Source: Minisyncoccota bacterium (GTDB lineage: Bacteria > Patescibacteriota > Minisyncoccia > Phycocordibacterales > UBA9973). From it: a DNA stretch of 48,821 nucleotides. The notes under the pieces are model-generated. The model ran no database searches and was not told where the DNA came from. It saw only the letters and a program-made list of their open reading frames with translations. The first letter of the stretch is position 1; each line of letters starts with the position of its first letter. Shown one piece after another: positions 6,576 to 19,979 of the stretch. The stretch spans positions 1 through 48,821 of the forward strand of contig DALYDA010000003.1 of assembly GCA_031973435.1 (NCBI GenBank), read 5' to 3'. The translations under genes were made by a program, and so were the position numbers.

Positions 6576-7508
6576 ATGTGGATAATAAAAAATAAAAAAA
6601 TATTTTTCGGACTGTCGGCGTTTTTCGTTGTCGCATCTATCGTCGGATTCATAATCTTTCCAGTTAGGGCATCGATAGAGTTTACAGGTGGATCGTCGCT
6701 TGTTGTAAATGTAGAGGGTCAAAGACCAGAGTCGAGAGACGTAGCACTTTATCTAAAGGACCTTGATATTTCTTCTCCTCTCGTTCAGCCTGTTGGAGAA
6801 TCTGGTCTGTCTATAAAGACTTCACCCCTTGATGAAGAAACAAAAAACCAAATCGTTTCGCACATACAAGAGATGTCAGGGTCTCCTGTATCTATACAGA
6901 GTTTCACTACTGTAGGACCATCTATTGGGGAGGAAATGTTGAAAAAATCTTTCTATGCTTTGTTTCTGGTTATCCTTTCTATAGTTTTGTACATCGCCTA
7001 TACATTTAGAAAAGTCACAAATTCCACAAACAAAGCACAAAAGGGAGTGTCTTCATGGAAATACGGATTTACTGCAAATATATGTTTGCTACACGACGTG
7101 ATACTTACTAGCGGGTTCTATGTTCTACTGTCTCACTTCTTTGGGGCAGAACTAGATACGTTGTTCGTAGTTGCTATACTTACGGTTCTCGGTGTTTCAG
7201 TTAATGATACTATCGTAGTGTTTGATAGAATACGAGAAAATATATTTTTGGACGAGGATAAAAAATCAAATGACTCTTTCGAAAAGATTGTAGGAAAAAG
7301 TGTGGACGAGACTATTGCAAGGTCTATAAACACATCTCTCACAGTTGTAATAGTTCTCCTTATCCTTGCACTGTTCGGGCCTGAAACAACAAAGATATTC
7401 TCTCTGACTATGATGGCAGGTATGATAATAGGAACATTCTCATCTATATTCTTGGCTAGTCCACTTCTTGTTGTTTGGGAAAGATTACAATCAAAAAAAT
7501 CTAGATAG
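6576..7508 (+). CDS. secF: protein translocase subunit SecF
   Basis: The DTIVVFDRIREN motif and TM topology are typical of SecF. Starts 5 nt after secD. Confidence 0.9.
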   Translation: MWIIKNKKIFFGLSAFFVVASIVGFIIFPVRASIEFTGGSSLVVNVEGQRPESRDVALYLKDLDISSPLVQPVGESGLSIKTSPLDEETKNQIVSHIQEMSGSPVSIQSFTTVGPSIGEEMLKKSFYALFLVILSIVLYIAYTFRKVTNSTNKAQKGVSSWKYGFTANICLLHDVILTSGFYVLLSHFFGAELDTLFVVAILTVLGVSVNDTIVVFDRIRENIFLDEDKKSNDSFEKIVGKSVDETIARSINTSLTVVIVLLILALFGPETTKIFSLTMMAGMIIGTFSSIFLASPLLVVWERLQSKKSR

Positions 7509-7520
7509 AAATAAAATAAA

Positions 7521-7548
7521 AACCTCGTCTATCCAGACGAGGTTTTTT
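7521..7548 (+). terminator. rho-independent terminator after secF (usable on both strands)
   Basis: 8-bp stem CCTCGTCT/AGACGAGG with a 4-nt loop, followed by TTTTTT and preceded by an A-run. Confidence 0.8.
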
Positions 7549-7893
7549 CAATATTTTTTTGACAGTGCATCTATTGCATCAAATTCAATAATCAAAAGTT
7601 TTATTTTCTCTTTGAGTTTCATTTCAATGCATACTTGCAGAGGTCCAGACATTAGAAGTATTTTTGAATTTACTTTTATCTCCAACAATATTTCTTTTTT
7701 TTCTTTTTTCTGTTGGACTTTCTGAATTTATCACAGATTGCTGATCTTGTTTTTTGGCGGTATCAGTCAAATTATTTTCTTCTTTCATTGATCAATTTTG
7801 TTTGCATATATTTTATTTTAAAGTTGACTATATGTCAAAAAAACCTTGCTTTTAAAAGGCTTTTTTGGCTAAGTCAACAAGATCAAAATCTGT

Positions 7894-7899
7894 TATAAT
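7894..7899 (+). promoter_or_regulatory. candidate extended -10 box (TGTTATAAT) upstream of lemA
   Basis: TGnTATAAT lies about 35-50 nt upstream of the lemA start candidates. No good -35 hexamer seen. Confidence 0.35.
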
Positions 7900-7934
7900 C
7901 ATAAGGTCGTAATTTACTTCTGACTTTTAACGTT

Positions 7935-8498
7935 TTGTATTTGCTTTTGATGTGGATACCAATCATTATAATAGTTCTATTAGTTCTTATTGTTGTAGGA
8001 ATGTATAACGGCTTCGTTCGTCTTGTAAACCGTACAAAGGAAGCTTGGGCAGATATCGAAGTGCAACTCAAGCGTCGTTATGACCTGATCCCAAACCTTG
8101 TTTCTGCTGTAAAAGGTTACGCTACTCACGAATCTTCTGCGTTTGAGAAAGTTACACAGGCACGTGCAGCTGCAATGGGAGCAAAGACAGCGGGGGAGCA
8201 TGGAAAGACTGAAGCAATACTAGGACAAGCTATCACTGGACTTTTCGGAATCGCAGAAGCATATCCAGATCTAAAGGCAAACACAAACTTCCTAGAACTT
8301 CAAAGAGAACTTTCTGATACTGAAAACAAGATCCAAGCAGCGCGTCGTTTTTACAACACAAACGTTCGTGATCTAAATACAAAGATTGAAATGTTCCCAG
8401 GCAATATCTTTGCAAAAATGTTTTCATTTGCAAAAATGGAATTCTTCGATATTCCAGATGATGGCGTAGAGTCAAAACCAGTAGAAGTAAAATTCTAA
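7935..8498 (+). CDS. lemA: LemA family protein
   Basis: N-terminal TM helix followed by a LemA-like helical domain (RRYDLIPNLV, AARRFYN). The start may be TTG at 7935 or ATG at 7950. Confidence 0.85.
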   Translation: MYLLLMWIPIIIIVLLVLIVVGMYNGFVRLVNRTKEAWADIEVQLKRRYDLIPNLVSAVKGYATHESSAFEKVTQARAAAMGAKTAGEHGKTEAILGQAITGLFGIAEAYPDLKANTNFLELQRELSDTENKIQAARRFYNTNVRDLNTKIEMFPGNIFAKMFSFAKMEFFDIPDDGVESKPVEVKF

Positions 8499-8502
8499 AT
8501 AT

Positions 8503-9240
8503 ATGTATCTAATTCTTGCAATAATTGTTGTTGTCCTTCTAGTGAGTATCAAGCAGGTCAACCAATATCAAAGAGGTGTAAGGTTTACTTTAGGACGTTA
8601 TACAGGTCTCATGAATCCTGGTTGGCGTATCGTAATACCAATATTCCAGTCATTCCAAAAAGTCGACATTCGAACCAAGGCTGTTGATGTGCCAGACCAA
8701 AATGCAATTACTCGAGACAATGTTTCGGTAAAAGTAAATGCGGTTATCTACTATAAGGTAAGTGACGCTTCAAAGGCAGTGATCGAAGTAGAAGATTTCA
8801 AAAATGCTATCTCACAATACGCTCAGACAACTATGCGAAACATTGTCGGTGAAGTCACTCTCGACGAACTTCTTTCCAAGCGTGATCAAATCGCAGACCG
8901 TATTCGTGAAATAGTAGACAAAGAAACTGACTTGTGGGGATTGAAAGTTCAAAATGTTGAACTCAAAGATGTGAGCCTTCCTCCAGACATGGAGAGAACG
9001 ATAGGCAAGCAAGCAGAAGCAGAAAGAGAAAAGCGCGCAATCATCATAACAAGTGAAGGAGAACTTGCTGCATCTGAAAACATGGCAAAGGCGGCAACAA
9101 TGCTCGCTTCGTCTCCTGGGGCTCTTCACTTGCGTACACTTCAGTCTATAAATGATATGGCAAGCGACCAGTCAAATACAGTTGTCTATATGGTTCCAGT
9201 AGAAGCTCTCAAGGCACTAGAAGGATTTATAAAGAAATAA
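8503..9240 (+). CDS. SPFH/band-7 (stomatin/prohibitin-like) membrane protein
   Basis: N-terminal TM helix plus an SPFH domain (VDVPDQNAITRDNVSVKVNAVIYYKV ... AEREKRAIIITSEGE). Confidence 0.9.
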   Translation: MYLILAIIVVVLLVSIKQVNQYQRGVRFTLGRYTGLMNPGWRIVIPIFQSFQKVDIRTKAVDVPDQNAITRDNVSVKVNAVIYYKVSDASKAVIEVEDFKNAISQYAQTTMRNIVGEVTLDELLSKRDQIADRIREIVDKETDLWGLKVQNVELKDVSLPPDMERTIGKQAEAEREKRAIIITSEGELAASENMAKAATMLASSPGALHLRTLQSINDMASDQSNTVVYMVPVEALKALEGFIKK

Positions 9241-15625: not shown

Positions 15626-15712
15626 GGAGACGTCGCATAGCGGTCTAGTGCACCACCTTGGAAAGGTGGCAAGGTGTCAAAGCCTTCGAGGGTTCAAATC
15701 CCTCCGTCTCCG
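15626..15712 (+). tRNA. tRNA-Ser (anticodon GGA), type II with long variable arm
   Basis: Hand-folded. Acceptor GGAGACG/CGTCTCC, D-loop with GG, anticodon stem CCACC/GGTGG with loop TTGGAAA, 18-nt variable arm, T-arm GAGGG-TTCAAAT-CCCTC, discriminator G. No encoded CCA. Confidence 0.85.
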
Positions 15713-15921
15713 CCTTTTTATAAATAAGATAGCTCTTGCTATTCTATTTGTAAAACAAGTTAGGGTGATAGGAGGGATTTGAACCGCTGGCCGCAGTCCC
15801 ATCACTATGGGACGAAGGTTTCGAGTCGTAGCAACGACGAGAGGCAAATCCCATCTCTGGTTTTCAGTAATTCAAATTAGACTAACAGACTCTGATTATG
15901 ATAGAGTCCATGGGTAAGTAG

Positions 15922-16008
15922 GGAGGCGTGGATGAGTGGTTTAAATCAACAGTTTACTAAACTGTCGTCCCGTTAAAAGGACCGTGAGTTCGAATCTCAC
16001 CGCCTCCG
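15922..16008 (+). tRNA. tRNA-Ser-like type II tRNA; anticodon reads ACT as I fold it
   Basis: Acceptor GGAGGCG/CGCCTCC, D-stem GAT/ATC, anticodon stem ACAGT/ACTGT with loop TTACTAA (anticodon at 15956-15958), 18-nt variable arm, T-arm GTGAG-TTCGAAT-CTCAC, discriminator G. Confidence 0.8.
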
Positions 16009-17502
16009 CATTAAAACGAAATCAGAATCCCCGCGAAAAAATGCATCGGCGCGAAGCGCCGATGTGTGGGCTGAATCCCCGCCAAACCCAATCCCCGCCA
16101 AGATTTTCCACGCTCCGCGTGGCTCAAAAAGTACGGTTCGATCCTTAATTTGAAAGTTCGAACCGACTTTTTTAAGTAAACGGATTTTTTCTCCGTTTAC
16201 TTCATCGTTTGCCAATTCCATATTGAATTTCAAAAACTTTTCGGTAAGTTCGAACCGATTATTCGCTTTTTGCTCAAAAGCAGATAATTTCTCTTTGAGA
16301 AGCTGTTTAGAGCTAACCAACGCACTTTTAGTCTCTCGATATTCTTCCAGTGAAAGTGCGCTTTCAAGATAGAGTGTCATCAGCCTCTCGATCTTGGAAT
16401 CCAAAAGAGAAATTTCGGCTTTTGTGTTATCCGCAAAAAGCGTAGACGATTGTATTTCGGATGATTGATCTTTTCTGTTTTCTTCAATCATCCATTTTAT
16501 CCAATCGTCTGGCAAAGAAACTTTTTTGATTTCCTTTTGAATTTGAGAAGTGATGATTTCTTCACGGACATATTTTTGATCACAAGGATTTTTCCTTTTC
16601 GTACACCGCAAATAGTTATGACCTTTTTGTGTTTCAATAGTGATAAAGCAACCGCAGACACAATGGAAAAATCCGCGATATAAATATGGCTTCAAAACTT
16701 TGGAATGTGGTTTAGACTTTCTCATCATCACTTCTTGAACGGAATCAAAAAGTTTCTTTGTAATAATCGGTTCGTGTTTACCTTCGTGTATTTCACCGTT
16801 ATACCTCATTAGCCCTGTGTAAATCGGATTTTTCAAAAGTTTTTGATAATTCGACACCGCAAGTGCTCCATCGCTTTTTCCTTTCAAACCTAGCTCATTA
16901 AATTTGTCGCGGACTTGGCGCAAAGTGAAGTTTCCAGTTGCATATGCCTCAAATGTTTTTCGCACAAGCGGAGCAAATTCGGGATGTGGAGTAATTCCGC
17001 CATTTTTTATATTCATATATCCAAGCGGAGCCATTTGAGGCCATATTCCATTCTTCACTTTGTTTCGATGTCCGCGCTTGATATTTTCCGACAAGTTATC
17101 AACATAATATTTTGATTGAGAAAAAGCGATTGAGAGCATGAATTTTCCTTGCGGTGTCGGATCACACCAGAAAGTTGGAAATTTTAAATCAGTTATCTTG
17201 CCCGTATCGAGCAAATATATTATTTTTCCACCATCAACACTATTTCTCGCTAGTCTGTCTGGATGCCACGCTAAAATTCCATTTGCCTCATTTGCTTCGA
17301 TACGGAGAAGCATTTCATTAAATACTGGCCGACCCGGAACTTTAGCCGTCTGCTTTTCCACAAATACATCTACAACCTCAATATCCTCTTTTAACGCTAA
17401 AGTTTTTAACTCGGCCAGTTGATCCGAAATGCTTCTAACCTGCCGATCTTCACTATCGGTAGATTTGCGAGTATAAATGAAAAATTTTCTGGTGTGATTC
17501 AT
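15997..17502 (-). CDS. large serine recombinase
   Basis: Resolvase catalytic domain (IYTRKSTDSEDRQVRSISDQ, DRLARN), recombinase domain, Zn-ribbon CVCGC...CTKRKNPC and a coiled-coil. The last ~41 codons lie in IR-A and the stop codon lies inside the tRNA T-arm. Confidence 0.9.
   Translation of the reverse strand: MNHTRKFFIYTRKSTDSEDRQVRSISDQLAELKTLALKEDIEVVDVFVEKQTAKVPGRPVFNEMLLRIEANEANGILAWHPDRLARNSVDGGKIIYLLDTGKITDLKFPTFWCDPTPQGKFMLSIAFSQSKYYVDNLSENIKRGHRNKVKNGIWPQMAPLGYMNIKNGGITPHPEFAPLVRKTFEAYATGNFTLRQVRDKFNELGLKGKSDGALAVSNYQKLLKNPIYTGLMRYNGEIHEGKHEPIITKKLFDSVQEVMMRKSKPHSKVLKPYLYRGFFHCVCGCFITIETQKGHNYLRCTKRKNPCDQKYVREEIITSQIQKEIKKVSLPDDWIKWMIEENRKDQSSEIQSSTLFADNTKAEISLLDSKIERLMTLYLESALSLEEYRETKSALVSSKQLLKEKLSAFEQKANNRFELTEKFLKFNMELANDEVNGEKIRLLKKVGSNFQIKDRTVLFEPRGAWKILAGIGFGGDSAHTSALRADAFFRGDSDFVLMRRR
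16006..16125. repeat. IR-A left copy (120 bp)
   Basis: Exact reverse complement of 17524..17643, checked base by base. Overlaps the last 3 nt of the tRNA. Confidence 0.95.
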
Positions 17503-17523
17503 ATTTTTGTATTGGCAAACGAG

Positions 17524-17643
17524 GAGCCACGCGGAGCGTGGAAAATCTTGGCGGGGATTGGGTTTGGCGGGGATTCAGCCCACACATCGGCGCTTCGCGC
17601 CGATGCATTTTTTCGCGGGGATTCTGATTTCGTTTTAATGCGG
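17524..17643. repeat. IR-A right copy (120 bp)
   Basis: Exact reverse complement of 16006..16125. Contains three direct GCGGGGATT 9-mers and the hairpin CATCGGCGC-TTC-GCGCCGATG. Confidence 0.95.
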
Positions 17644-17847
17644 TGCATATTAGACAAAGTTCGAATGTATTTTGCTGATAATCCTAACGAAGAAATCTAA
17701 AAATGGACTCGGCAGGGCGAAACAATTTTCTGGGGATATGGATTCGCCCTGCCTCGGCTAATGTCTTTTCCCGCCCGCAGGAGGGGTCTGGGGAGGAATG
17801 CGGACGGGATTCGCTCCAGCATTTCTTTGCGGAATTCGGGGCGGACA
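17639..17847. repeat. IR-B left copy (209 bp)
   Basis: Exact reverse complement of 19771..19979. Overlaps IR-A right by the 5-nt TGCGG core. Confidence 0.95.
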
Positions 17848-17850
17848 TGC

Positions 17851-17876
17851 CCATATTGAATTATAATTCAATATGG
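17851..17876. promoter_or_regulatory. 26-bp perfect palindrome centred on TATAAT; candidate operator and bidirectional -10
   Basis: CCATATTGAATT-AT-AATTCAATATGG. TATAAT (17862-17867) reads the same on both strands. Lies ~30 nt upstream of the XRE gene. Confidence 0.5.
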
Positions 17877-17902
17877 TTTAATAATGCAAGTTTTTATATA
17901 CT

Positions 17903-18112
17903 GTGGATATGTCAATTGTAAAGAAACTTGGCGAGAACATTAAGAAAATAAGGACAAAAAAGGAAATGACCCAAGGCGATGTCTGCCGAGCGCTTAAAAT
18001 GGATAGAGGATATATGAGTGCCATTGAAAATGGCAAGAAAAATATAACTCTTTTACAGCTTGAGAAAATAGCAAAAGCACTTGGGGAAAATCCCGATAGA
18101 TTGTTGAAATGA
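17903..18112 (+). CDS. XRE-family helix-turn-helix transcriptional regulator
   Basis: MTQGDVCRALKMDRGYMSAIENGKKNITLLQLEKIAKAL is a typical HTH_3 (XRE) domain. Start is GTG at 17903 or ATG at 17909. Confidence 0.85.
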   Translation: MDMSIVKKLGENIKKIRTKKEMTQGDVCRALKMDRGYMSAIENGKKNITLLQLEKIAKALGENPDRLLK

Positions 18113-18315
18113 GTTGTGTTATAATTCAAACATATATGACAGAAGAAGAAAGAGCTATAAAAATTGAAGAAGTGTACAACGATGCGAAACAAAAACTTGA
18201 GGAACTTGGCAATAAACGCCACGGCATTGTTAAAGATTACATTAAAGAGTTAGAGGCTCAAAAAGTAGATGCTATTCGGGCATCTCTTGGATTATCAAAT
18301 AATAGTCAAAAATAA
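18109..18315 (+). CDS. small charged, coiled-coil-like hypothetical protein (68 aa)
   Basis: ATGA overlap with the XRE stop codon suggests translational coupling. Helical, charged sequence. Confidence 0.5.
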   Translation: MSCVIIQTYMTEEERAIKIEEVYNDAKQKLEELGNKRHGIVKDYIKELEAQKVDAIRASLGLSNNSQK

Positions 18316-18319
18316 ATTT

Positions 18320-19228
18320 ATGGGAATAGAAGATATGGCAAACGCAAAAGCTATCGAATCCATGGAAAAGAACAATGATGTTGCTGGTCTTGAAGCGTTT
18401 AAGTTGGGGGAATCTCCTGATTCTAATGTTGCTAAATGGGCAGAAAATGCATTGAAGCGCATTAGGGAACAAGCTGAAAATAGCTCGGCTACACCTGAAT
18501 ATCAGACAACATCAATTGAAAAATATGGTGGCTCAAATGAGGAAATTCAAAAAAGAACGGAAGGAGTGGATAGTGAGATAGAATTAGTTAAAACTGAAAC
18601 AGAAGATAAACTTAAAAGGATAAATGAGGAAAATATTGAAGATGTTCCTTATGAGGAAGTAAAAGATACAGAAAAAAATTTAAGTAATTTAGAAAAGCCA
18701 GCCGAGAAAATAGAAGGTGAAAAAACTGAAATCAAAGAAGAAACAATAAAATCTTCCGAAATTACAAAGGAGAAACCCTTACAACCAGGTGATGAAATTT
18801 TCAAAGATGGAAAATTCTTTAAAATAACTGATATTAGCGTTCCATCGCCTGAAGAGAAAGAATTTAAGTGGGGAGCAGAAAAACCTAATAGAGACAGAGA
18901 ATTCAGCGAAATGTCGAAGCTATCATTTGACATGGATCTTTTGGAAGAAAGAAAAAAATTCGATGAACAGAAAAAACAAGAATTTGAAAAACGAAATGGG
19001 CAAAAAATAAGTGCGATAATTAAAGGTGGCAAGGGTACGATTGCACAAGAAACAATTGAACTTGATCCAGAAAATGTTATAAGAATTGATAACGCTGAAC
19101 AAAGAGAAAAAATTGTACAAATGCAAAAAGAAATGGAAGAAACTGAAAACAGAGCAGCAAATTTCGCTGGTCTGGGAAAGGAAAAAAAGTTGGTAGACAA
19201 AATAATAGGGCATCCAGGGAAATTCTAA
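18320..19228 (+). CDS. highly charged (E/K-rich) hypothetical protein, 302 aa
   Basis: In-frame ATG at 18320 (MGIEDMANAK), 5 nt after the upstream stop. The ORF-track start at 18269 would overlap the upstream gene. Low-complexity acidic/lysine-rich sequence. Confidence 0.6.
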   Translation: MGIEDMANAKAIESMEKNNDVAGLEAFKLGESPDSNVAKWAENALKRIREQAENSSATPEYQTTSIEKYGGSNEEIQKRTEGVDSEIELVKTETEDKLKRINEENIEDVPYEEVKDTEKNLSNLEKPAEKIEGEKTEIKEETIKSSEITKEKPLQPGDEIFKDGKFFKITDISVPSPEEKEFKWGAEKPNRDREFSEMSKLSFDMDLLEERKKFDEQKKQEFEKRNGQKISAIIKGGKGTIAQETIELDPENVIRIDNAEQREKIVQMQKEMEETENRAANFAGLGKEKKLVDKIIGHPGKF

Positions 19229-19320
19229 CTACTGGAACTAGTGGGAGCAAAATTCATGCGCGCATGGGTGGGTAAAGTGTCCGCGTGTACTCACGCGGAC
19301 ACAGGGGCAAGCATGAATAT

Positions 19321-19346
19321 TCCGCCTCAGGCATTTCCGCTAGGGC
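19321..19346. repeat. 26-bp inverted repeat, left arm
   Basis: TCCGCCTCAGGCATTTCCGCTAGGGC is the exact reverse complement of 19661..19686. Confidence 0.9.
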
Positions 19347-19660
19347 GTCCATGACTAAAGGATGAGCGCCGCCGTAATAAGCAAAATAAAACTCTAAAAT
19401 AAAAATAAACTCGGATATGAAAACGAGGAGAGGGGTTGTGCGAGGGCGGACTCCGAAGGCACTCTCAACGAAGCCACAAAGCGTAACATAAAGATAAAAG
19501 TAATAAAGCACTGAATACTCAAACTAACATCTGCGAGGAGGAGACCGAAGCTGGGGAGAGGATTCCTTCCTCTCCCCAAACAGCTGTCCTGCCCGAGCAC
19601 GCGCTCGCAAGCGCGGAATGCGAGGAGAAAGCAGGACACCTAGTAATCTAGGCGCGAGTA

Positions 19661-19686
19661 GCCCTAGCGGAAATGCCTGAGGCGGA
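19661..19686. repeat. 26-bp inverted repeat, right arm
   Basis: GCCCTAGCGGAAATGCCTGAGGCGGA is the exact reverse complement of 19321..19346. The arms are 314 bp apart. Confidence 0.9.
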
Positions 19687-19770
19687 TGCCGAATGGTGGA
19701 TCTCTTTAGACTTGGACGATCAAAATGGTAGAATGACTGAGACAATATTGAATTTGTATTTTCTGTTTTT

Positions 19771-19979
19771 TGTCCGCCCCGAATTCCGCAAAGAAATGCT
19801 GGAGCGAATCCCGTCCGCATTCCTCCCCAGACCCCTCCTGCGGGCGGGAAAAGACATTAGCCGAGGCAGGGCGAATCCATATCCCCAGAAAATTGTTTCG
19901 CCCTGCCGAGTCCATTTTTAGATTTCTTCGTTAGGATTATCAGCAAAATACATTCGAACTTTGTCTAATATGCACCGCA
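19771..19979. repeat. IR-B right copy (209 bp)
   Basis: Exact reverse complement of 17639..17847. Ends with CCGCA. Confidence 0.95.

Follow-up and report, generated by a model that had tools for sequence, protein, structure and literature searches.

A putative large serine integrase element of Patescibacteria that divides its own gene at a tRNA-Ser gene and retains an inverted attP

Introduction

Why does an integrated element keep, between its recombinase gene and its cargo, a second, complete and inverted copy of its own attachment site? The question is raised by a locus in a 48,821-nucleotide stretch of DNA (contig DALYDA010000003.1, positions 1 to 48,821, assembly GCA_031973435.1; hereafter the window) from a Minisyncoccota bacterium of the Patescibacteriota. 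The locus holds a 3,974-bp integrative element, which has entered a tRNA-Ser gene at its last bases (core CCGC) and forms a small mobile island there. A recombinase module and a cargo module meet in a continuous 324-bp block, which the initial annotation of the locus had described as a duplicate of the element's attP. That part of the description stands, and it overlooked that the crossover falls within the recombinase open reading frame (ORF) and that the block is the 3' end of the gene itself. The overall explanation that we consider rather probable is a split-gene integrase element, the usual state of which is locked and is re-armed by inversion of the recombinase module. Related loci were fetched from two scans, the best 80 of each being taken (80 from genomes and 80 from metagenomes), and junctions were tallied over 164 loci, which are cited below by the letter L and a number.

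Layout of the element

The two pairs of inverted repeats are exact. Positions 16006-16125 are the reverse complement of 17524-17643 (120/120), and positions 17639-17847 are the reverse complement of 19771-19979 (209/209). The inner copies adjoin and share TGCGG at 17639-17643, so that 17524-17847 is one continuous block of 324 bp, and CCGCA is present at both outer ends (16006-16010 and 19975-19979). These repeats, the overlap and the terminal pentamers were as first described. Both repeats end sharply, the bases beyond them mismatching save for a few chance matches. Within the 48.8-kb window no second copy of the 324-bp block was found, and the next best match is 25 nt (E=0.001). The features on which the argument rests are as follows.

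15922-16009, plus strand: tRNA-Ser, anticodon read as ACU, the occupied attB (ARAGORN and Rfam, end called at 16009 and 16008)
15997-17502, minus strand: recombinase ORF in the integrated state, 501 aa, stopping inside the tRNA gene and without the conserved tail
16006-16010: core/overlap at attL, CCGCA; the crossover must fall within CCGC
16006-16125, minus strand: A' arm (P'-type arm of attL), an exact inverted repeat coding recombinase residues ~461-499 (EPRGAW...ALRAD...LMR)
16126-17523, minus strand: unique segment of the recombinase module, with the gene body (residues 1-460) and 21 nt upstream
17524-17643, plus strand: A arm, a spare and inverted version of codons ~461-499 of the recombinase gene, 21 nt ahead of its start codon
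17639-17643: core of the internal complete inverted attP, TGCGG
17639-17847, plus strand: B arm, inner copy, with tail coding, then a conserved hairpin (17711-17753), then a variable part
17644-17700, plus strand: spare true 3' end of the recombinase gene, CILDKVRMYFADNPNEEI and stop, doubling as the conserved P arm
19771-19979, minus strand: B' arm (P arm of attR), outer copy, with tail coding and a hairpin at 19865-19907
19975-19979: core at attR, CCGCA

The occupied tRNA-Ser gene is complete and constitutes the tRNA (B-type) arm of attL, with 16006-16009 as its final bases. The element is composed of two end-symmetric modules, R (A'-recombinase-A) and C (B-cargo-B'), and either R or C can be reversed without altering any junction sequence. 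The circle geometry predicted from the repeats consists of two 324-bp inverted repeats between two unique segments, and the empty site expected after excision reads ...CACCGCCTCCGCAGAAAATAATAG.... In the window the arms share just 5 bp. The B-A overlap is 4-11 bp long and contains CCGC in most related loci, the exception to CCGC being L035, which has a mutated internal core and retains GC only.

The recombinase gene spans attP

By its domain content the enzyme is assigned to the large serine recombinases, as a distant lineage. The Resolvase domain (PF00239, E 7.8e-19) covers residues 8-153, with the serine-nucleophile motif IYTRKSTDSEDRQ near the N-terminus, and the Recombinase domain (PF07508, E 1.1e-15) covers residues 175-259. 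Zn_ribbon_recom (PF13408) scores 22.4 bits (E 1.6e-4) in the window recombinase, below the cut-off of 25.3, and is listed for most of its homologues. A sequence search of the PDB matched the catalytic domain alone (3g13, 3guv), weakly but specifically. Long helices are predicted at residues 334-381 and 387-434, with a predicted local distance difference test score (pLDDT) of ~80 within an otherwise poor model.

The core of the crossover falls within the reading frame of the recombinase, about 18 codons ahead of the true stop. In nearly every intact relative tested, 17-20 codons separate the core from the conserved stop; in distant ones the figure is 15-19. The complete gene exists only across an attP-type junction, where the gene body and A' are followed by the first 57 nt of the P arm (B'). 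When this virtual ORF was assembled from the body, A' and the reverse complement of the B-proximal sequence, it measured 515-521 aa in most of the 27 loci tested; the exceptions are four copies with internal stops or frameshifts and the distant L061 (529 aa) and L080 (525 aa). Its ending is conserved as ...EPRGAW..ALRAD..F[WL]R, followed beyond the core by C[ILV]LD[KE]VRxYFxxNPxD and the stop. The junction that restores the ORF is present in the internal block and would also form in an excised circle.

In the integrated state the ORF reads via A' into the tRNA gene, where its stop is variable or absent within 90 nt, and the lengths of 500-650 aa found in databases are explained by this. Of the 120 best homologues in the database, 12 end in the conserved tail and 107 continue into the tRNA T-arm in antisense (..RR[RG][RW]DSN[SP]R..). 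The proline codon of the tail is seen as CCA, CCG, CCT and CCC, and other tail codons also vary synonymously; the tail is therefore under selection at the protein level. Distant relatives (46-64% identity, at tRNA-Tyr, tRNA-Cys and tRNA-Ser) retain a related ending, ..R[TM][YF]F..N.. and stop. The tail is modelled as a helix with a pLDDT of ~70, the best local confidence of the C-terminal region. Integration thus swaps a conserved C-terminal helix for read-through into the tRNA and truncates the enzyme. The 324-bp block is an inverted spare of the last ~57 codons of the gene, its stop and the downstream hairpin (17711-17753), and it is a complete attP because the 3' end of the gene contains attP.

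Distribution and conservation of the layout

The recombinase family comprises more than 7,600 homologue clusters at ~80% identity. The best 120 homologues are 78-97% identical, and every named one comes from Patescibacteria, also known as the Candidate Phyla Radiation (CPR). The family is very large and confined to Patescibacteria/CPR, where it spans Paceibacteria, Nomurabacteria, Uhrbacteria, Saccharibacteria-labelled bins and others. No relatives of the recombinase were found among IMG/VR viral contigs, and phage and plasmid records gave nothing above 29% identity to it.

The same layout (tRNA-Ser, then A'-recombinase-A, then B-cargo-B') is present in 17 fully readable genome loci, with the tRNA-Ser on the strand opposite the recombinase gene; one of them lies inside a 913-kb contig. 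Many more metagenome loci share the split and abutting geometry, and coincidence is thereby ruled out. In these 17 loci the outer B' measures 189-408 bp and the cargo 1.5-6.3 kb. The A arm is ~120 bp long, with 93-121 bp in the 15 loci where it is cleanly resolved, and the A/A' repeats are mostly 120-121 bp.

Downstream of A', a tRNA gene is found in 122 of 140 readable loci, namely tRNA-Ser in 116 and tRNA-Asp, tRNA-Cys, tRNA-Tyr or tRNA-Pro in the rest. In the 116 loci the A' arm meets the 3' end of tRNA-Ser at the CCGC core, which bears out the reading of the outer junctions as attL and attR types. Upstream of A, the conserved P arm is found in 103 of 124 readable loci, as expected if the inner block is a complete inverted attP, and both canonical junctions are visible in 78 loci on independent contigs. 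Missing P arms in L135, L010 and L082 proved to be only apparent and due to failures of the search pattern. The split and duplicated repeat arrangement, the lack of which in homologues the initial annotation had named as a ground for rejection, is a hallmark of the family. Full-text searches of one literature collection returned no description of the family or its layout, and both the family and its architecture are apparently undescribed.

Inverted repeats flanking the gene were also seen in relatives at tRNA-Glu, tRNA-Tyr, tRNA-Leu/Cys, tRNA-Asp and tRNA-Pro (L031, L077, L078, L080, L047, L155 and L116). In L031 (9647-11378) there are two of these elements, one at a tRNA-Ser gene and one at the tRNA-Glu gene beside it.

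Inversion, exchange and mobility of the modules

R and C are each found in either orientation, elements exchange them, and the internal attP has reacted with a second tRNA-Ser. The independent inversion of modules that was predicted from the window alone is thus observed among its relatives. The cargo modules (B'-cargo-B) of L006 and L025 are 98.6% identical over 2.7 kb and lie in opposite orientation, whereas their recombinase modules are co-linear and just 84.7% identical. This comparison therefore demonstrates both inversion and exchange of modules, with a breakpoint a few bases from the core. The cargo of L160 is also flipped, with its helix-turn-helix (HTH) gene at the distal end.

The recombinase module is flipped in L162, which reads tRNA-Ser (plus), A, recombinase (plus), A' and tail, and in which the full-length gene is restored. 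In L163 and L052 a full-length recombinase gene is followed by B and then by the HTH gene on the plus strand, and in L062 the tRNA-Ser adjoins the 5' side of the recombinase gene.

The locus L015 has the order tRNA-Ser(gga) (plus), A-recombinase-A', tRNA-Ser(act) (minus). This is exactly the order expected when the internal attP recombines, with inversion, with the attB of a neighbouring tRNA-Ser(gga), and it shows natural use of the internal site. The same pair of genes, tRNA-Ser(gga) and tRNA-Ser(act), stands as tandem neighbours in the window (15626 and 15922).

Recombinases 97-98% identical to that of the window are found in three isoacceptors, namely tRNA-Ser(act), tRNA-Ser(gct) (L001) and tRNA-Ser(gga) (L081), which points to recent mobility. 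In L081 the near-identical recombinase stands beside a different cargo of 6 kb. Arrays with an attP-type junction downstream of the recombinase gene occur in L025, L124, L139 and L161, and the flanking arms of L025, L124 and L161 are only 77-97% alike, these arrays being chained modules from different elements.

Several further arrangements were noted. In L040 (1-9703) repeat-bounded modules follow one another without a gap and include two recombinase genes, L096 (1-11400) has two elements at neighbouring tRNA(-like) genes, and L103 (3800-3900) has a decayed P-arm remnant next to a live P arm. In L092 (6880-7060) two P arms face each other across a 37-bp spacer, forming two attR-type junctions.

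Proposed mechanism

In the split-gene explanation, the usual arrangement would be a locked state in which the enzyme lacks its tail and is probably also repressed through the HTH protein at 17851-17876. Locking would account for the coexistence within 2 kb of an intact attP, the recombinase body and a free tRNA-Ser attB, a combination found in the window and in L108, L111, L145 and L158. Inversion of R would join the gene body to the spare 3' end, and the gene would then lie downstream of the tRNA gene and co-directional with it. For the flip, homologous recombination between the 120-bp arms is one conceivable route, and an event at an invariant 15-bp palindrome within them is another. Once armed, the enzyme could carry out excision (attL x attR), use the internal attP or exchange modules. 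Every arrangement other than the usual one leaves the enzyme complete, which would make the usual one an absorbing state, and its ~95% share among loci may be due to this.

An extended version of this mechanism is a natural two-state latch. Here a serine integrase would be toggled by inversion of its body without a directionality factor, the body being joined either to the tRNA (truncated enzyme, locked element) or to the spare 3' end (full-length enzyme, armed element), the tRNA promoter would drive the armed gene, cargo modules would be swapped by double recombination, and the family would be the main carrier of defence and accessory genes across Patescibacteria. We put this extended version forward tentatively and regard it as doubtful in its entirety.

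Several points weigh against the split-gene explanation. It presumes that the loss of 18 residues inactivates the enzyme. The AlphaFold model is poor overall (pLDDT 53) and allows no structural role to be read for the tail. Repression by the HTH protein could by itself explain the coexistence of the internal attP and a free attB, and a terminator-like hairpin in A lies ahead of the tail coding, where it might end transcription too early for the tail to be included. L162 is the only fully visible flipped locus; its A arms are 77% alike, and it may be a hybrid from exchange between elements and not a simple flip. Tandem integration, as in L025, L124 and L161, restores the full gene without any flip. 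No empty site was found for the window strain. Moreover, the ~4-kb excised circle that the initial annotation anticipated was not encountered: among the 164 loci there is no circular contig, excised circle or circular junction. L161, considered as a circular contig, was rejected, the arms on either side of its recombinase gene being different and its ends being without overlap.

Alternative explanations

Among the alternatives, the one that survives best regards the element as a platform for exchangeable cassettes, in which the C module is the unit of exchange, R is the carrier, cargo is swapped by double recombination and flipping is a side effect. It accommodates the cargo shared by L006 and L025 beside different recombinase modules, with its breakpoint within ~5 bp of the core, as well as the opposite case of one recombinase (97%) with different cargo in the window and L081. 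The shifting set of defence and accessory genes in the cargo and the existence of arrays with a recombinase module between two cargo modules (L025, L124 and L161) are also in its favour. However, no free cargo circle, direct P-to-P junction or R-only insertion was found among the loci, and the P arms of L092 are 37 bp apart; an integron-like form of the platform was rejected on the same observations. The breakpoint between the window and L081 lies ~55 nt inside B, off the core, which fits homologous recombination, and the position of the core inside the recombinase ORF is left unexplained. As a sufficient account the platform is unlikely, but it is compatible with the split-gene explanation and could add to it.

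The arrangement might instead be a non-functional by-product, that is, a frozen inverted duplication of the 3' end of the gene that is kept identical by gene conversion. Passive homogenisation of inverted repeats is common in many genomes, and the element persists in L006, L019, L015 and L162 although its arms have drifted to 77-90% identity. Against this, the arms are 100% identical in most loci while being ~20% different between elements. Relatives of 46-48% identity at tRNA-Tyr, tRNA-Cys and tRNA-Leu keep inverted repeats of 110-150 bp around the recombinase gene (the B/B' pair was not resolved there), and variants that are flipped or have consumed attP indicate that the sites are used. This explanation is judged improbable.

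A further alternative is a flip-flop episome resembling the yeast 2-micron plasmid, in which the element would exist part-time as a ~4-kb circle and flipping would serve replication or copy-number control. The predicted circle geometry is correct, and among integrated elements both modules exist in both orientations. Nevertheless, circular contigs number 0/164 loci, no relatives were found among viral contigs, and identity to entries in plasmid and phage collections does not exceed 29%. Neither a replication initiator nor an origin-like feature turned up among the scanned cargo proteins (cargos of 1.5-6.8 kb). The isomers are strongly skewed and far from the roughly equal proportions that a flip-flop would give. 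Beyond the geometry, nothing supports an analogy with 2-micron amplification, and the episome is very improbable.

Finally, an assembly chimera produced by repeats or population heterogeneity can be dismissed: many family contigs do break at the repeats and the L083 duplication looks artefactual, but the identical layout recurs in dozens of independent assemblies from different assemblers, on contigs of up to 913 kb, and it is coding-coherent, with a fixed stop and a conserved tail that no artefact would give.

Many family contigs end within A or B repeats, and it is because contigs break inside the repeats that numerous contigs of 1.6-2.5 kb carrying the recombinase gene are found. In L083, positions 1-1769 and 7224-8992 form a perfect terminal inverted duplication of 1,769 bp, apparently a repeat-induced assembly artefact.

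Two molecular variants were also considered and set aside. A single-stranded circle using the 324-bp stem as attP, by analogy with CTXphi and integron attC, would on cutting leave two hairpin-capped chromosome ends, which is not the product seen. A palindromic CG/GC central dinucleotide that loses polarity would produce junctions between the tRNA gene and the P arm; such a junction was found at 0/122 tRNA junctions, and polarity is thus kept.

Nucleic-acid signals in the arms

The A-arm sequence and length are conserved in 40 aligned A.B blocks, and three signals stand in or next to the arms.

16108-16122, second copy 17527-17541: 15-bp palindrome CCACGC-NNN-GCGTGG at the inner end of A'
16044-16064, minus strand, second copy 17585-17605: cUUCGg-loop hairpin in A', followed by a T-run on the recombinase sense strand
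17851-17876: 26-bp perfect palindrome CCATATTGAATTATAATTCAATATGG, 3 bp past the inner copy of B, with the HTH gene starting 26 bp further on

15-bp palindrome: Across 40 diverged family members, five base pairs of the CCACGC-NNN-GCGTGG stem are identical in 40/40 and the sixth in 39/40. The stem is coding, yet it shows zero synonymous change across these members. Its 3-nt loop is inverted (TCC for GGA) in L002, L017 and L026. An odd junction in L164 coincides with it, and in L162 it forms the end of each of the two dissimilar A arms. The palindrome is a candidate site of recombinase-body inversion.

UUCG hairpin: The stem of the hairpin covaries (A-arm alignment columns 68-88). At pairs 73/83, 74/82 and 75/81 both sides are changed in 9, 9 and 20 of the 40 members, with no one-sided change, and the stem variants are GGCGC/GCGCC, GGCAC/GTGCC and GCGCC/GGCGC. 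Situated upstream of the tail codons, the hairpin may be an attenuator or a stability element.

P and P' arms: The P arm is highly conserved, whereas the core-adjacent P' arm shows little conservation and differs greatly from it. For a TTCGAA-like motif, the distance to the core is ~5 bp greater in the P arm than in the tRNA arm. Such a difference in spacing distinguishes P-type from B-type half-sites of serine integrases.

26-bp palindrome: The half-site ATATTGAATT of this palindrome recurs at 19744-19753, just ahead of the outer B'. The palindrome is likely to be the operator of the HTH protein and is treated here as a candidate. Outward operator-controlled promoters at both cargo ends, suggested by ATATTGAATT at ~18 nt from both B arms, were considered and rejected, the pattern not being general elsewhere. 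A promoter scan gave 15 hits against 10.1 expected, which is not above background, and no promoter is claimed.

Cargo

The cargo of the window contains three small genes and a stretch of ~540 nt without a convincing ORF.

17903-18112, plus strand: HTH_3 (Cro/CI-type) protein, 69 aa, E 4.7e-12
18109-19228, plus strand: two ORFs that match no family, one of 68 aa and one with an acidic product of up to 319 aa; neither is conserved elsewhere in the family of elements
19229-19770, plus strand: conserved non-coding region of ~520 nt, present in a subset of elements

The HTH_3 gene is the sole cargo gene conserved across the family and normally lies beside the inner B, divergent from the recombinase gene. 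Since only the recombinase and HTH genes are conserved, there is no conserved candidate for a directionality factor.

The non-coding region probably encodes a structured RNA, to judge from its base-pairing pattern. It contains a 26-bp long-range helix (19321-19346 with 19661-19686) and several hairpins, and 19 of its 72 predicted pairs have compensatory changes on both sides; it has no match in Rfam 15. Copies are present in L081 (488-1014), L097 (~130-590), L012 (7185-7720), L073 (~2000-2450), L076 and L033. The copy in L012 lies ~5.6 kb off, on the chromosomal side.

Elsewhere in the family the cargo varies and includes HpaII and TdeIII restriction-modification, type III res/mod, SIR2-HerA, AAA_15/AAA_21 ATPases and GmrSD/HNH. 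Cytochrome cd1, a glycosyltransferase, a solute symporter and an Orn/DAP decarboxylase were also seen, as was a P-type metal ATPase accompanied by HMA and DsbD proteins. No replication, conjugation/transfer or virion genes were found among the 20 large cargo proteins scanned and the called genes of four further contigs.

tRNA-Ser targets

A second tRNA-Ser gene stands next to the occupied one in the window.

15626-15714, plus strand: tRNA-Ser(GGA), a potential attB that carries no insert and lies 300 bp from the element; its 3' end is ...CTCCGCC followed by TTTTT

Unoccupied tRNA-Ser genes adjoin occupied ones in this way in related loci also, and tRNA-Ser(GGA) is the isoacceptor most often occupied among them. 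Elements in tRNA-Ser(act) are found in L015, L104, L111, L129, L142 and L145 in addition to the window. An Rfam scan of the window returned only the two tRNAs above threshold and nothing for the 324-bp block or the non-coding cargo region.

The flanks of the window element had no match among related loci that could represent an empty site, and exact-protein look-ups with the recombinase and the flanking nucleotidyltransferase gave no match.

An A at anticodon position 34, as in tRNA-Ser(ACU), is unusual for bacteria. A tRNA-Ser with this anticodon was read in the window and in L015, L038, L039, L041, L043, L062, L104, L111, L129, L142, L145 and L147. The gene usually stands beside tRNA-Ser(GCU) or tRNA-Ser(GGA) and is an integration target like other tRNA-Ser genes.

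Between the two tRNA-Ser genes of the window, a tRNA-like fragment lies on the minus strand at 15771-15860. It contains the 15-nt string GGAGGGATTTGAACC, which is complementary without a mismatch to 15691-15705, in the T-arm of tRNA-Ser(GGA). ARAGORN made no call for the fragment, and one weak match to a permuted transfer-messenger RNA (E 0.64) was obtained. The fragment may be a relic of an earlier rearrangement in the tRNA cluster.

Comparison with known systems

Phage and integrative and conjugative element (ICE) large serine integrases: The integrases of phiC31, Bxb1, A118/LI and SPbeta (SprA) have the same order of catalytic domain and recombinase domain, probably followed in the present enzyme too by the zinc ribbon and long helices. 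They are also alike in the very short identity between partner sites, in conservative insertion that leaves hybrid junctions, and in the spacing of the P-arm and tRNA-arm motifs, which follows the published model of P-type and B-type half-sites. In contrast, the present enzyme is at most 29% identical to any phage or plasmid integrase, its target is a tRNA 3' end, and its attP lies within the integrase ORF. In addition, a second intact inverted attP is retained, no conserved candidate directionality factor is present, and P' is unlike P.

SSV1-type fuselloviruses: In these viruses attP is located in the int gene, and integration into a tRNA gene partitions int. The disruption of its own integrase gene upon tRNA integration is shared with the window element. 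However, the SSV1-type enzyme is a tyrosine recombinase whose gene is split near the middle without a spare copy, whereas here the enzyme belongs to the serine type, the last ~18 codons are lost and a spare is kept upstream.

Yeast 2-micron FLP/FRT: The likeness consists of the predicted circle, the two exact inverted repeats containing the target, and the recombinase gene on one segment. The 2-micron enzyme is a tyrosine recombinase; the present element has a serine enzyme, its repeats are the coding 3' end of that enzyme, it is integrated in a tRNA gene, and neither a circle nor replication functions were seen.

Hin, Gin, Cin and shufflons: In these systems, too, a segment between inverted repeats can be found either way round, with the recombinase gene inside the segment (hin) or with the 3' end of an ORF being switched (Gin/Cin). 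Hin and Gin are invertases of ~190 aa with a C-terminal HTH, acting on sites of ~26 bp with an enhancer, in contrast to an enzyme of ~518 aa with repeats of 120 and 209 bp here (120-400 bp in the family). Furthermore, the switched gene here is the recombinase gene itself and the whole unit is mobile.

Tn4451/Tn5397 (TnpX/TndX): These are likewise small elements with a large serine recombinase and a circle joint that changes expression of the enzyme. Their joint creates a promoter, and they have no inverted spare site and no tRNA target, while the joint of the present element would complete the coding sequence.

Synthetic integrase memory, latches and cassette exchange: The two-state register and the placement of cargo between inverted identical sites are common to these devices and the present element. 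The devices are engineered, convert attB/attP into attL/attR and need a directionality factor for reset; here the arms are identical and the site types remain unchanged.

The combination seen here, in which the serine-integrase gene is split, an inverted attP is kept and the modules are symmetric at their ends, occurs in none of the compared systems.

Significance

Patescibacteria/CPR constitute a large share of bacterial diversity and are nearly all uncultured, without genetic tools and with few described mobile elements. In CPR genome bins, contigs repeatedly break because of the repeats of the present family. The element also represents a natural design apparently not described for serine integrases, in which the gene is cut by its own product, attP is retained, and inversion or exchange leaves the sites unchanged. 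If the truncated and full-length forms of the enzyme differ in activity or direction, this would be a new form of directionality control, useful for synthetic memory and genome engineering. With att sites that can be read from genomes, the family offers a ready-made site-specific integration system for CPR bacteria and a potential genetic tool. Within these bacteria, the family is apparently a dominant vehicle of restriction-modification, SIR2-HerA and other accessory genes, almost always at tRNA-Ser.

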